Source of the DNA: Enterobacteria phage WA13
DNA: 6,068 nucleotides
Sequence record: NC_007821.1
Direction: 5' to 3' (one strand)
Part shown: positions 1 to 6,068 of the stretch, one piece after another
Layout of the letters: each line of letters begins with the position of its first letter
How positions within the stretch are numbered: the stretch's first letter is position 1
The notes under the pieces: model-generated
What the model saw: only the letters and a program-made list of their open reading frames with translations
What the model was told of the DNA's origin: nothing
The model's database searches: none
Program-made: the position numbers and the translations under genes

Positions 1-27
1 TTGTTGACATTCCCTAAACCCTTATGA

Positions 28-64
28 GACTCTTGCTTCAACGAATGAAGTAGGAGTCTTTATT
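28..64 (+). terminator. Terminator-like hairpin with U-rich tail just downstream of gene H (across the circular junction); candidate TH
   Basis: Arms 28-40 (gactcttgcttca) and 46-58 (tgaagtaggagtc) pair over 13 positions, two of them G-U wobbles in RNA, with loop acgaa (41-45), followed by TTTATT (59-64). The 3' arm contains the TAGGAG Shine-Dalgarno (51-56) of the ORF starting at 65. Hand-folded, no energy calculation. Confidence 0.45.
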
Positions 65-526: not shown

Positions 527-699
527 AGTATTTTAGTCTTGTGGATGAACATTATGCTTATTGCCCTGATACGAGGATTTTGCACATTACTCGTAGCCGT
601 GTTTCTGACCCTCGTTATGAGCGTCGCTTTCTTACTGATGAGGAACATTTTGCACTTTTGGATTGGTTGAAAAATCGCCCAACTTATATTAATTCTTGA
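523..699 (+). CDS. Hypothetical protein (58 aa), GTG start
   Basis: GTG at 523 with GGAGG (513-517) 5 nt upstream, overlapping the stop of the preceding small ORF (GTGA, 523-526). No in-frame ATG exists, so the start must be non-ATG. TGA at 697-699. Very strong third-position T bias (roughly 60% of codons by hand count). Product MKYFSLVDEHYAYCPDTRILHITRSRVSDPRYERRFLTDEEHFALLDWLKNRPTYINS. Confidence 0.35.
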   Translation: MKYFSLVDEHYAYCPDTRILHITRSRVSDPRYERRFLTDEEHFALLDWLKNRPTYINS

Positions 700-725
700 C
701 AGGCCTTTAAAATACCCTCTATATT
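696..725 (+). promoter_or_regulatory. Sigma70-type promoter upstream of gene A (PA)
   Basis: TTGACA (696-701), 18-nt spacer, TATATT (720-725). Position corresponds to the phiX174 PA promoter just upstream of gene A. Confidence 0.5.
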
Positions 726-756
726 GCCCTCATAGGTTCACTACGAGGGCTTTTTT
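726..756 (+). terminator. GC-rich hairpin plus T6 tract immediately upstream of the gene A start; intrinsic-terminator-like
   Basis: gccctc (726-731) pairs with gagggc (745-750), with an inner tag/cta helix (733-735 / 741-743), followed by TTTTTT (751-756). The 3' arm is the gene A Shine-Dalgarno GAGGG (745-749). Confidence 0.45.
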
Positions 757-758
757 GC

Positions 759-3059: not shown

Positions 3060-3073
3060 GGGGCTTCGGCCCC
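3060..3073 (+). terminator. J-F spacer hairpin GGGGCTTCGGCCCC (UUCG tetraloop); likely weak terminator / mRNA-stabilising structure
   Basis: Perfect 5-bp G/C stem closing a C(UUCG)G tetraloop. No strong U tract follows (tataagg), so termination would be partial. The F Shine-Dalgarno AAGGA lies at 3077-3081. Confidence 0.5.
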
Positions 3074-3088
3074 TATAAGGATTCTTAA

Positions 3089-4372
3089 ATGTCAAACGTG
3101 CAAACTTCCGCTGAACGTATTCCTCACGACCTTTCTCATCTGGTTTTTGATGCAGGCAAAATTGGTCGTTTAAAGGTTGTTTCTTGGACTCCTGTTGTTG
3201 CAGGTGATTCTTTTGAGCTTGATATGATTGGCGCTATTCGCCTTTCCCCGCTTCGTCGTGGCCTTGCTGTTGACTCTCGTGTTGACCTGTTCACGTTTTA
3301 TGTCCCTCATCGTCATGTATATGGTGAGCAGTGGATTGATTTTATGAAGCAAGGTGTTGATGCTGCTCCTTTGGCCCCTGTTCAGTGCTCTCGCGGTTGG
3401 GATAGTGCTCAGTATCTTGCTACTATTCCGTCTAGTAACTTAAAGGTTCCTAAGTTTCTTCATCAAGGTTACCTGAACATTTACAATAATTACTTTAAAG
3501 CTCCGTGGATGGATGACCTGACTTATGCCAACCCGTCTAATATGGAGGGTGAAGATGTTCGTTTTGGTGTTCGTGCATGTAACTTGAAAACTATTTGGAC
3601 TGCTCCGCTTCCTCCGGATACTGAAACCTCTCATTCTATGGAGACTGAAACCAACTCCATTGACATTATGGGTTTGCAGGCCGCTTATGCTCAATTACAT
3701 ACTGAGCAGGAGCGTGATTACTTCATGACTCGTTATCGTGATATTGTTAACGAATTTGGAGGTAGTACTTCTTATGATGCGGATAATCGTCCTTTGCTTG
3801 TTATGCATTCTGAGTTCTGGGCCTCAGGCTATGATGTTGACGGCACCGACCAAAGCTCTCTCGGTCAGTTCTCCGGTCGTGTCCAGCAGACGTTTAAGCA
3901 TTCAGTACCGCGATTCTTCTGCCCTGAGCATGGCACTATGTTCACACTCGCATTGGTCCGCTTCCCGCCGACTCATGAAATGGAGATGCATTACTTAGTT
4001 GGTAAAGAAGATTTGACTTATACTGATTTGGCTTGTGACCCTGCTTTGATGGCTAACTTGCCTCCTCGTGAGGTTAATATGTCTCAGTTCTTCCATTCTG
4101 GAAGTGCTAGTGCTAAGTTTAAGATCGCTGAAGGTCAGTGGTATCGCATGCAGCCTGATCGCGTTGCATTGCCGTATAACTATCTTGATGGTTTTCCGTT
4201 CTATAGCGCGATTCCGTCTGATGATATTAAGCAGCGCGTTCTGGTTAATACTGATAACTACGATGAGGTTTTCCAGTCTATGCAGCTTGCGCACTGGAAT
4301 ATGCAGACTAAGTTTAATTGCACCATTTATCGTAATATGCCGACCACTCGCGACTCTATTATGACCTCTTGA
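3089..4372 (+). CDS. F: Major capsid protein F
   Basis: 427-aa ORF. Long stretches match phiX174 F (MSN.QT.AER.PHDLSH, FTFYVPHRHVYGEQWI, GYLNIYNNYFKAPWM, DIMGLQAAYA, LVMHS..WASGYDVDGTDQ.SLGQFSGRVQQT.KHSVPRFF.PEHGTMFTLALVRFPPT, C-terminal PTTRDSIMTS). Confidence 0.95.
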   Translation: MSNVQTSAERIPHDLSHLVFDAGKIGRLKVVSWTPVVAGDSFELDMIGAIRLSPLRRGLAVDSRVDLFTFYVPHRHVYGEQWIDFMKQGVDAAPLAPVQCSRGWDSAQYLATIPSSNLKVPKFLHQGYLNIYNNYFKAPWMDDLTYANPSNMEGEDVRFGVRACNLKTIWTAPLPPDTETSHSMETETNSIDIMGLQAAYAQLHTEQERDYFMTRYRDIVNEFGGSTSYDADNRPLLVMHSEFWASGYDVDGTDQSSLGQFSGRVQQTFKHSVPRFFCPEHGTMFTLALVRFPPTHEMEMHYLVGKEDLTYTDLACDPALMANLPPREVNMSQFFHSGSASAKFKIAEGQWYRMQPDRVALPYNYLDGFPFYSAIPSDDIKQRVLVNTDNYDEVFQSMQLAHWNMQTKFNCTIYRNMPTTRDSIMTS

Positions 4373-4378
4373 TTATGT

Positions 4379-4392
4379 GGGGCTTCGGCCCC
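4379..4392 (+). terminator. F-G spacer hairpin GGGGCTTCGGCCCC (second identical copy); likely weak terminator / mRNA-stabilising structure
   Basis: Same 14-nt sequence as 3060-3073, followed by cTTTaagg and the G Shine-Dalgarno AAGGA (4396-4400). Confidence 0.5.
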
Positions 4393-4955: not shown

Positions 4956-5090
4956 AAGGCTGCCGCACTCCCGGTTAGATGCCTGCCTAGTGTAGGGCAG
5001 ACCGAGCCGTACGGAGATACCCGATAAACTAGGAACGTGGAAGGCGCAAGCCGCCTTCCCTCCTGCTAAGCCCCAAAAGGAGTTACAGCG
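4956..5090 (+). other. G-H intergenic region with stable hairpins; probable complementary (-) strand origin (DnaG primase-dependent, G4-type)
   Basis: 135-nt non-coding spacer, far longer than J-F or F-G. Contains a perfect 8-bp GC-rich hairpin (ggaaggcg / caagc / cgccttcc, 5039-5059), the palindrome ccgtacgg (5007-5014) and a ctgcc/ggcag stem-loop (4984-5000). From memory, the primase-dependent origin of alpha3/St-1/phiK maps between G and H, whereas G4 has it between F and G. H Shine-Dalgarno AAGGAG at 5077-5082. Confidence 0.4.
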
Positions 5091-6068
5091 ATGTTAGGTG
5101 CCGTTGTAGGTGGTATTGCTTCAGCCTTAGCTGGTGGAGCCGCTTCTAAGCTGTTTGGTGGTAAACCTGCCGCTCAAGCCGCTACCGAGTCCTCTGGCCT
5201 TTCTAATGGTCAAGGCGTTATTGGTATGGATCAAGATGCTGGTATTCAGTCAGCTATTCAGGGCTCTAATGTTCCCAATGGTCAGATTCCTGCCCCCACG
5301 CAGACTGGTGGCGTTATGTCTGATGCTAAAAATATGATTAAGAATGCTGGTAAAGATTTGCTTGATGGCGTTATGACCGCTGGAAGTGATCGCATTAAGC
5401 AGGCATTGGTTGATAAGTTGAGTGGTAACGATGCAAAGAAACAAGGACAAGCAACCCGTGATTACTTGGCTGCGGCCTTCCCTGAGCTCAATGCATGGGA
5501 ACGTGCTGGAGCTGGTGCTTCCGGTGCCGGATTGGAGTCTTCCGGCCAGAATCAGCAAAAGGAGTTGATGCGTATGCAGCTGGATACTCAGAAGGATATT
5601 GCTAAGATGCAAATGCATAATAATTTGCAGATTGCTGGTATTCAGTCCGCTACTTCTCGCGAGAATACGAAGGATTCAGTTTATGCTCAGAATGAGATGC
5701 TTAAATTTAATCAACAGGAGTCACAGGCACGCGTTGAGTCTATCCTCGCCAACACTGACCTTACGGCTAAACAGGCTGCCCATGAAATTATGAGAATGGC
5801 CCTTACTCGTGCTCAGGAGACTGGTCAGCATTTAACTAATAGTCAGATTATGGCATTGGAGAAAAAAGTTTATGCAGAAATCGGAAAAATTCATCAAGAT
5901 ACTCAAAACGCTCGTTATGGTAGCTCTCAAGTTACTGCTGCGGCGAAAGATGTTACGAATATGATTACCGATGCCACTTCTGGTGCTGCCGATTGGGTCT
6001 CTCAACAGTGGAATTCTTTCTTTAAAGATGGCAAGTCTAATGGTATTCCCCTCAATACCAGAAAATAA
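5091..6068 (+). CDS. H: Minor spike / DNA pilot protein H
   Basis: 325-aa ORF with AAGGAG 8 nt upstream. Matches phiX174 H (M.GA..GGIASALAGGA.SKLFGG, RDYLAAAFPELNAWERAGA, IAGIQSATSR.NTKD.VYAQNEML, QNARYGSS). The stop codon TAA is the last three bases of the window. Confidence 0.92.
   Translation: MLGAVVGGIASALAGGAASKLFGGKPAAQAATESSGLSNGQGVIGMDQDAGIQSAIQGSNVPNGQIPAPTQTGGVMSDAKNMIKNAGKDLLDGVMTAGSDRIKQALVDKLSGNDAKKQGQATRDYLAAAFPELNAWERAGAGASGAGLESSGQNQQKELMRMQLDTQKDIAKMQMHNNLQIAGIQSATSRENTKDSVYAQNEMLKFNQQESQARVESILANTDLTAKQAAHEIMRMALTRAQETGQHLTNSQIMALEKKVYAEIGKIHQDTQNARYGSSQVTAAAKDVTNMITDATSGAADWVSQQWNSFFKDGKSNGIPLNTRK

Follow-up and report, generated by a model that had tools for sequence, protein, structure and literature searches.

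The closest described counterpart of the locus analyzed here is the interval between genes H and A of phage phiX174, at 3918-3980, in which the H stop codon is followed by 9 nt, TTGACA (positions 3927-3932), 17 nt, TTTCAT (3950-3955), the hairpin GCCTCCAAATCTTGGAGGC (3956-3974), TTTTTT, and the ATG of gene A. Logel and Jaschke described this phiX174 region as a combined, overlapping element, pA-T_H, with a net effect that is terminating (0.29-fold). A 2026 saturation-mutagenesis preprint on phiX174 pA reported 15 detrimental mutations in the -35 hexamer TTGACA and found TATG, which represents the TRTG motif, to be essential, with 9 of 10 mutations in it being detrimental and only A-to-G being tolerated. 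According to the same preprint, TATG, a T, and TTTCAT are functionally required, the -10 hexamer (TTTCAT) being degenerate, and the 3′ stem of T_H is sensitive to mutation because it is also the ribosome binding site (RBS) of gene A (GGAGG). In G4 and ID2 (Gequatrovirus), the TAA of gene H is followed by 3 nt, TTGAC(T/A), 18 nt, TAATAT or TATCAT, a hairpin with GGAGGC in its 3′ arm, a T-run, and ATG. Promoters of the TRTGn/TGn type recognized by σ70 have TG, one further base, and then the -10 hexamer; in them, a weak hexamer is offset by other contacts. Morons, a concept developed for lambdoid phages, consist of a promoter, one or more accessory genes, and a terminator located between conserved genes.

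Results

We analyzed the 6,068-nt sequence of Enterobacteria phage WA13 (NC_007821.1; from here on, the window), which is the complete circular genome of an alpha3-like microvirus (Bullavirinae, Alphatrevirus) and is 99.3% identical to that of coliphage WA45. The numbering is the same as in WA45, with base 1 being the first base 3′ of the gene H stop codon; because base 1 was set at the end of H, the circular junction that the original prediction had the candidate promoter straddle is merely a numbering convention. The last base of gene H is 6068 and the first of gene A is 759; the 758-nt spacer between them contains three small open reading frames (ORF1-3), which are absent from the H-A interval of ∼60 nt in phiX174- and G4-like phages. 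All features described below are on the + strand. The deposited records of alpha3-like phages annotate only ribosome binding sites and CDSs in the H-A region, and we found no transcription-start mapping for any alpha3-like phage (Alphatrevirus) in the literature searched.

The -35 hexamer anticipated at 4-9 is a perfect TTGACA (6/6 consensus positions), located 3 nt after the H stop codon. The A-rich stretch GAAAATAA reported upstream of it is also present, at 6061-6068, and consists of the last H codons (AGA AAA) and the TAA stop codon. From its location 3 nt upstream of the -35 hexamer, it could serve as a proximal UP-like element; we rejected it as an UP-element candidate because its conservation in all relatives is inseparable from the coding constraint on H. 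The proposed -10 hexamer, GAGACT, had been placed at 27-32 with a 17-nt spacer, which is off by one: positions 27-32 read AGACTC, and GAGACT is located at 26-31, 16 nt from the -35 hexamer. The locus contains a second register, in which a segment of variable sequence and constant length (10-22) leads to TATG at 23-26, a fit to the TRTG extended -10 motif with its phiX174 pA equivalent at 3945-3948, followed by a free base, A27, and the hexamer GACTCT at 28-33, so that TRTGn directly precedes the hexamer. Here the spacer is 18 nt, and A and T occupy -11 and -7. Both spacers are within the 16-18-nt range of σ70 promoters, and in both registers the second base of the hexamer is A and the sixth is T; the match to TATAAT is 2/6 for GACTCT and 3/6 for GAGACT, both below the usual scan criterion of ≥4/6. 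Further downstream, the hairpin originally given as 28-58 is real and larger than claimed, spanning 26-60 with 15 bp, a core at 28-58, and a loop at 41-45. Its 3′ arm includes the ORF1 Shine-Dalgarno (SD) sequence AGGAG (52-56), which is located 8 nt before the ATG and was annotated as an RBS in the original alpha3 record M25640, and the stem is followed on its 3′ side by the T-rich tail TTTATT (59-64). The order of parts up to position 67 is TAA, 3 nt, TTGACA, 13 nt, TATG, A, GACTCT, the T_H-like hairpin with AGGAG in its 3′ arm, TTTATT, and ATG (at 65). For simplicity, we refer to this region as the 5′ module.

The 5′ module resembles phiX174 pA/T_H in several respects. Both are located directly after the H stop codon and have a perfect TTGACA and, separated by one base from a degenerate -10 hexamer, a TRTG motif; in both, the hairpin is located at or overlaps the -10 hexamer, and its 3′ stem holds the RBS of the next gene and is followed by a T-run and ATG. 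They differ in the next gene, which is gene A in phiX174 and ORF1 in the window (where gene A, at 759, lies behind a second module), in the spacer (18 nt in the window and 17 nt in phiX174), in the distance between the stop codon and the -35 hexamer (3 nt compared with 9 nt), and in the hairpin, as GACTCT is inside a stem of 15 bp, whereas the phiX174 -10 hexamer abuts a stem of 8 bp. The pA regions of G4 and ID2 have the same H-stop offset and spacer length as the 5′ module but differ from it in having good -10 hexamers (TAATAT and TATCAT) and no TRTG. As in extended -10 promoters, TG is located one base before the hexamer of the 5′ module, with T and R before the TG; however, classical promoters of this type usually have a good -10 hexamer and may do without a -35 hexamer, whereas the window combines a perfect -35 with a very poor -10. 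When aligned, the 5′ module matches the modules of phiX174, G4, ID2, and window positions 696-758 with a z score of ∼3.4. Further, the relatives NC28 and NC29 have CTCCCAAT in common with the phiX174 pA spacer. We conclude that the element is probably a pA/T_H-type composite, so far without annotation in the alpha3-like group, and the comparison indicates that the 5′ module is probably the positional counterpart of phiX174/G4 pA, fused to a T_H-like hairpin that bears the RBS of the next gene.

When the window sequence is taken alone, the site is no better than chance. A consensus promoter scan of the window did not call it, the second hexamer being below 4/6. We built a σ70 weight matrix ourselves, with approximate compilation frequencies, and with it the site scored 9.24 bits and ranked fifth on the + strand; shuffled sequences yielded 4.6 ± 2.3 sites of equal or better score. 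By register, the matrix gave 9.2 bits for the 16-nt spacer and 6.8 bits for the 18-nt spacer without any bonus for TG. The same matrix ranked phiX174 pA and pD first and second in the phiX174 genome, and on the + strand of the window it placed first, second, and third the sites that precede gene A (696), gene D (2445), and gene B (1684). The composite pattern TTGACA-N12-14-TRTG-N-NANNNT, which was written post hoc, has one match in the window (4-33) compared with 0.01 expected. The search against Rfam revealed no family match anywhere in the window. These scores could be accommodated if a functionless TTGACA simply happened to follow the H stop codon: ∼1.7 copies are expected per strand and five are seen on the + strand, and the matrix score does not exceed that of shuffled sequences. 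What speaks against such a coincidence comes from the relatives.

We compared 27 distinct H-to-ORF1 junctions, taken from isolates, IMG/VR, metagenomes, and Logan/ENA assemblies, and, in addition, the divergent contig L045. TTGAC was invariant in all 27 junctions and in L045, with the sixth base being A in 24 and T in three. The mean π across the 27 junctions was 0.034 for the -35 hexamer, 0.24 for the spacer, 0.084 for TRTG, and 0.000 for the -10 hexamer, compared with a neutral baseline of ∼0.31 at the 4-fold sites of the last 98 H codons and ORF1, at which 2 of 35 sites were invariant. In the spacer (10-22), 11 of 13 columns were variable and 2 were invariant, and there were no indels between the -35 and -10 hexamers among the 27 sequences, although insertions or deletions are present in the hairpin loop (of 1 nt and 17 nt) and in the interval from the SD sequence to the ATG. 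Because the spacer is nearly as diverse as neutral sites, the low diversity of the hexamers does not reflect a local recent sweep. T22, T23, and T25 were invariant though located outside the hairpin and any ORF, position 24 was A or G only (A24G in five sequences), and G26 was kept in 26 of 27 sequences, the exception being phiK (TATT). Overall, L045 (as TGTG) and all but one of the 27 sequences retained TRTG, and TTGAC-N13-15-TRTG is found at the same site in every alpha3-like locus but phiK and also in phiX174. In L045, the ORF1 allele is only 55% identical in DNA, yet the intergenic module is 85% identical, with every motif intact. Control copies of TTGACA within genes (1317 and 3660) decay at synonymous positions, whereas TTGACA at 4 (apart from its sixth base, as given above), 696, and 1684 and TTGACG at 2445 are invariant (12 genomes were compared for 1684 and 2445).

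Across relatives, the site is thus clearly beyond chance, as judged by its conservation: it is invariant in 28 genomes in which neighboring neutral sites are almost saturated, TTGACA copies within genes are not conserved, and a pA -35 hexamer is present at the same position in three genera. A coincidental hexamer is therefore effectively refuted by the comparative data, and we give it next to no weight. With regard to register, the change of A27 in Lilleven affects a free base in the 18-nt register and would damage the 16-nt register, and TATT in phiK improves the 16-nt register to TAGACT. The natural variants mostly fit the 18-nt register, although the two registers are not fully separable by these sequences. 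The pattern of conserved blocks around a spacer of free sequence and constant length is a footprint that is also seen at 696-725.

All six positions of GACTCT (28-33) are invariant, as is the SD region at 53-59. Positions 28-33 form the base of the 5′ arm of the hairpin and pair with the SD region (53-58), so that their conservation is confounded, and their invariance can be fully explained by this pairing. The RNA hairpin has a ΔG of -20.8 kcal/mol (z of -6.3 compared with shuffles) and formed in all 22 variants folded, at -13 to -21 kcal/mol or better. In a covariation test, 92% of cells were paired and only one double compensatory change was seen, so that the support for the hairpin rests on invariance and energy, not on covariation. 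The stem contains 5 G-C pairs out of 15, and, with C58 taken as the end of the stem, the tail is 6/8 U; a terminator scan of the window did not call the hairpin at 26-60 and its tail. A pairing of 1-7 (UUGUUGA) with 6003-6009 (UCAACAG, in gene H), which was predicted by folding, was rejected as the cause of the conservation of TTGTTGA and is probably fortuitous, as variants on the H side, some of which mismatch, are not compensated.

These properties bear on an alternative in which 26-64 is only a T_H-type terminator and a mask for the ORF1 SD sequence, ORF1-3 are expressed by read-through, and TTGACA binds polymerase unproductively or is kept for another reason, with no transcript starting here. 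The strength of the hairpin and its retention in every relative fit this alternative, as does the invariant SD sequence in the 3′ arm, which suffices for the invariance of 28-33; the -10 hexamer is very poor, generic scans call no promoter, and even in phiX174 the net effect of pA-T_H is a terminating one. However, such a role leaves unexplained the invariance of TTGAC and of T22, T23, and T25, which are outside the hairpin, and the constant length of a spacer that drifts in sequence at a nearly neutral rate. Further, a relic -35 hexamer would decay as the TTGACA copies in coding regions do, and the changes seen in TRTG are only those that the motif tolerates. We therefore regard the absence of a start as unlikely, although it is the most substantial of the competing explanations.

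If the site is a promoter, as we prefer to think, initiation is predicted at A40 or A41 (40-41), where the hairpin has its top. The 5′ arm ends with A40, which is predicted because it is 7 nt from the -10 hexamer, which is the distance from TTTCAT to position 3962 in phiX174. A start inside the hairpin had been raised against the promoter in the original prediction; phiX174 is known to have this arrangement, with its pA start (3962 in RefSeq) inside the T_H hairpin (3956-3974), and it is by analogy with that start that the window start is placed. RNAs starting at 38 or 41 fold with a ΔG of only -4.0 or -3.5 kcal/mol, respectively, neither of which is significant. This weak folding implies that transcripts initiated at the promoter would escape the hairpin.

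The first gene downstream of the candidate promoter is ORF1 (65-433; 122 amino acids), followed by ORF2 (437-526; 29 amino acids, hydrophobic) and ORF3 (523-699; 58 amino acids), which has a GTG start overlapping the ORF2 stop codon. The annotation of phage Lilleven lists all three as hypothetical proteins, and gene calls on most related contigs include them. In ORF1, invariant columns amounted to 52%, 63%, and 11% at the first, second, and third codon positions, which is a coding signature; the corresponding values for ORF3 were 62%, 74%, and 41%, and the codon-position signal of ORF2 was weak. The predicted model of ORF1 is confident (pLDDT of 89.9), and searches of ORF1 against Pfam and PHROGs gave no match. 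All ORF1 homologues detected were on contigs ∼0.6 to 6.3 kb long, and those contigs that were examined all proved to be alpha3-like microviruses. An apparent distant relative on a 51-kb contig (L034) was spurious, as only the peptide YFDYEAEE is common to both and is located inside an unrelated 348-amino acid protein. We also rejected an overlapping ORF of 123 amino acids in another frame (138-509), which MG945254 annotates as "similar to hypothetical protein": it is not coding, as its second codon positions vary like the third positions of ORF1 and are 20% invariant.

Several records differ from the window in ORF1. The ORF is not open as a 122-amino acid frame in the alpha3 record X60322 and the St-1 record GQ149088, and it is open in all others; frameshifts or sequencing errors probably account for these two exceptions. 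A form of 154 amino acids (L035/L036 and L037/L038) has a 32-amino acid N-terminal extension together with a hairpin top that is larger by 17 nt. At 820-1209 of L045, an ORF1 allele of 129 amino acids shows the 55% DNA identity noted above, between flanks that are 79-90% identical. The exchangeable alleles of L045, L035, and L037 suggest recombination at the cassette.

A second module precedes gene A. Its promoter, TTGACA-18 nt-TATATT (696-725), matches the consensus at 11 of 12 positions, is pA-like, and was the top site in both the scan and the weight matrix. It is followed by a hairpin identified by folding (GCCCTC...GAGGGC; 726-750), TTTTTT, GC, and the gene A ATG, the hairpin and tail together occupying 726-758. 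The hairpin has a ΔG of -14.7 kcal/mol (z of -2.7) and, together with its T6, is likely the terminator of an ORF1-3 unit, carrying the RBS of gene A. The mean π of this promoter was 0.013 for the -35 hexamer, 0.29 for the spacer, and 0.067 for the -10 hexamer. Compared with the 5′ module, 696-758 has the same architecture and conservation footprint but differs in having a near-consensus -10 hexamer, TATATT, and a classical GC-rich stem with T6 and in driving gene A. The layout TTGAC(A/T), 17-18 nt, -10 hexamer, hairpin, T-run, and ATG is common to phiX174, G4, ID2, and 696-758; in the three phages it follows the H stop codon, whereas at 696-758 it follows ORF3, the TGA stop codon of which (697-699) is inside the -35 hexamer.

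The 12-nt lead-ins of the two modules, TAATTGTTGACA (6066-6068 joined to 1-9) and TAATTCTTGACA (690-701), are near-identical, and this direct repeat may have been left by a duplication of the pA region, which now flanks the ORF cassette. In alignments to G4/ID2 pA/T_H, the z score was ∼5.4 for the 3′ module and ∼3.5 for the 5′ module, and in alignments to phiX174 it was 3.35 for the 5′ module and 2.33 for the 3′ module. By these scores, the 5′ module appears nearer to phiX174 and the 3′ module nearer to G4/ID2, and we assign neither as the ancestral pA. We note that the viable isolate NC35 has a 30-nt deletion, aligned to 703-732, that removes the -10 hexamer and the 5′ stem of the 3′ module. 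Because NC35 lacks the gene A-proximal -10 hexamer, its gene A must be transcribed from upstream.

We note several other signals in the genome. TTGACA-17-CAGAGT (1684-1712) is located within a gene, 86 nt before gene B, and TTGACG-17-TACATT (2445-2473) within a gene, 47 nt before gene D; their -35 hexamers are those found invariant in 12 genomes, and the two sites are probably the counterparts of pB and pD. An identical hairpin, GGGGCTTCGGCCCC, with a UUCG-type loop and followed by TAAGGAT, is present at 3060-3073 (after gene J) and at 4379-4392 (after gene F); these hairpins are probably the terminators T_J and T_F or mRNA-stabilizing structures, with the RBSs of genes F and G. The G-H intergenic region (4956-5090; 135 nt) is GC-rich, appears to be highly structured, and has no Rfam match. 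It is presumably where St-1, phiK, and alpha3 carry a primase-dependent (G4-type) origin of the complementary strand.

Discussion

Overall, the comparative evidence backs the core of the original proposal, namely a promoter for the spacer ORFs, and corrects the coordinates and spacer of its -10 hexamer. We hold with moderate confidence that 4-33 is a functional but weak σ70 promoter of the extended -10 type that initiates in vivo. By analogy with phiX174 pA/T_H, with which the layout is shared, we prefer the register in which TRTG precedes GACTCT with an 18-nt spacer and transcription starts near A40. That the -10 hexamer is so poor would follow because 28-33 must be a -10 hexamer, one side of a terminator stem, and the complement of the SD sequence at once. 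There is, against a promoter at 4-33, a much stronger one for gene A 690 nt downstream, and read-through from H alone could express ORF1-3 without a local promoter.

We envisage that RNA polymerase would initiate near A40, at the hairpin top, and that the resulting transcripts, without the 5′ arm, would form no hairpin, would not terminate, and would have the SD sequence of ORF1 exposed. Read-through RNA from H would form the hairpin, leading to partial termination and masking of the ORF1 SD sequence. The ORF1-3 unit would stop at the second hairpin and T6 (726-756), and the promoter at 696-725 would likewise restart transcription for gene A, with a predicted start at ∼732, inside the 726-750 hairpin.

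The conserved bases might instead serve at the level of DNA, in replication or superinfection, for instance as part of the H/A "reduction" (incompatibility) sequence, which is thought to bind a host or phage factor for the conversion of single strand to replicative form. A cloned 495-base fragment of phiX174 (3705-4200) gives the reduction effect, for which DNA-protein binding has been proposed as the mechanism, and the hairpin would form also in the virion DNA, a single strand of mRNA sense. However, the active determinants studied in phiX174 map to coding changes in H and not to intergenic motifs, and the mutational data for phiX174 assign the -35 and TRTG motifs to pA. In the alpha3-like phages, the conserved bases spell exactly a -35 hexamer and TRTG at promoter spacing, and a reduction function would leave this footprint, with its spacer of constant length, unexplained; such a function would also be compatible with a promoter. 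We consider a DNA-level role improbable as the explanation of the site.

With the weak promoter as the preferred reading of 4-33, the H-A spacer invites comparison with morons: ORF1-3 are located between a promoter-like module and a hairpin with T6 and are inserted between the conserved genes H and A. Unlike morons, they are found in a microvirus with single-stranded DNA, and the flanking signals resemble duplicated native pA/T_H and not imported ones. It is conceivable, and we offer it as a tentative model that we do not expect to hold in full, that the spacer is a moron-like ORF1-3 cassette between two copies of the native pA/T_H element (promoter, terminator, and RBS) in tandem, which insulate it. 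The upstream copy would start the ORF1-3 transcript, which would be translated only from its own promoter because read-through masks the SD sequence, and the downstream copy would stop this transcript and reset transcription for gene A. The near-identical lead-ins would then be the scar of the duplication, and the swapped ORF1 alleles (L045 and the 154-amino acid forms) would identify the cassette as an accessory locus open to exchange, possibly with functions in host takeover or anti-defense.

The general principles of microvirus transcription would be unchanged by this promoter, as phiX174 pA/T_H already provides a documented case of this design. If it exists, the 5′ module would be a compact natural case in which one sequence serves as -10 hexamer, terminator stem, and anti-SD sequence, and it would be of use in understanding and refactoring model genomes of the phiX174 type. 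Among the genes it would control, ORF1 shows clear purifying selection, and the fold predicted for it with confidence has no known relative. Alpha3-like microviruses would then have four promoters, compared with the canonical three, and three unannotated, lineage-specific genes would form a transcription unit under separate control.
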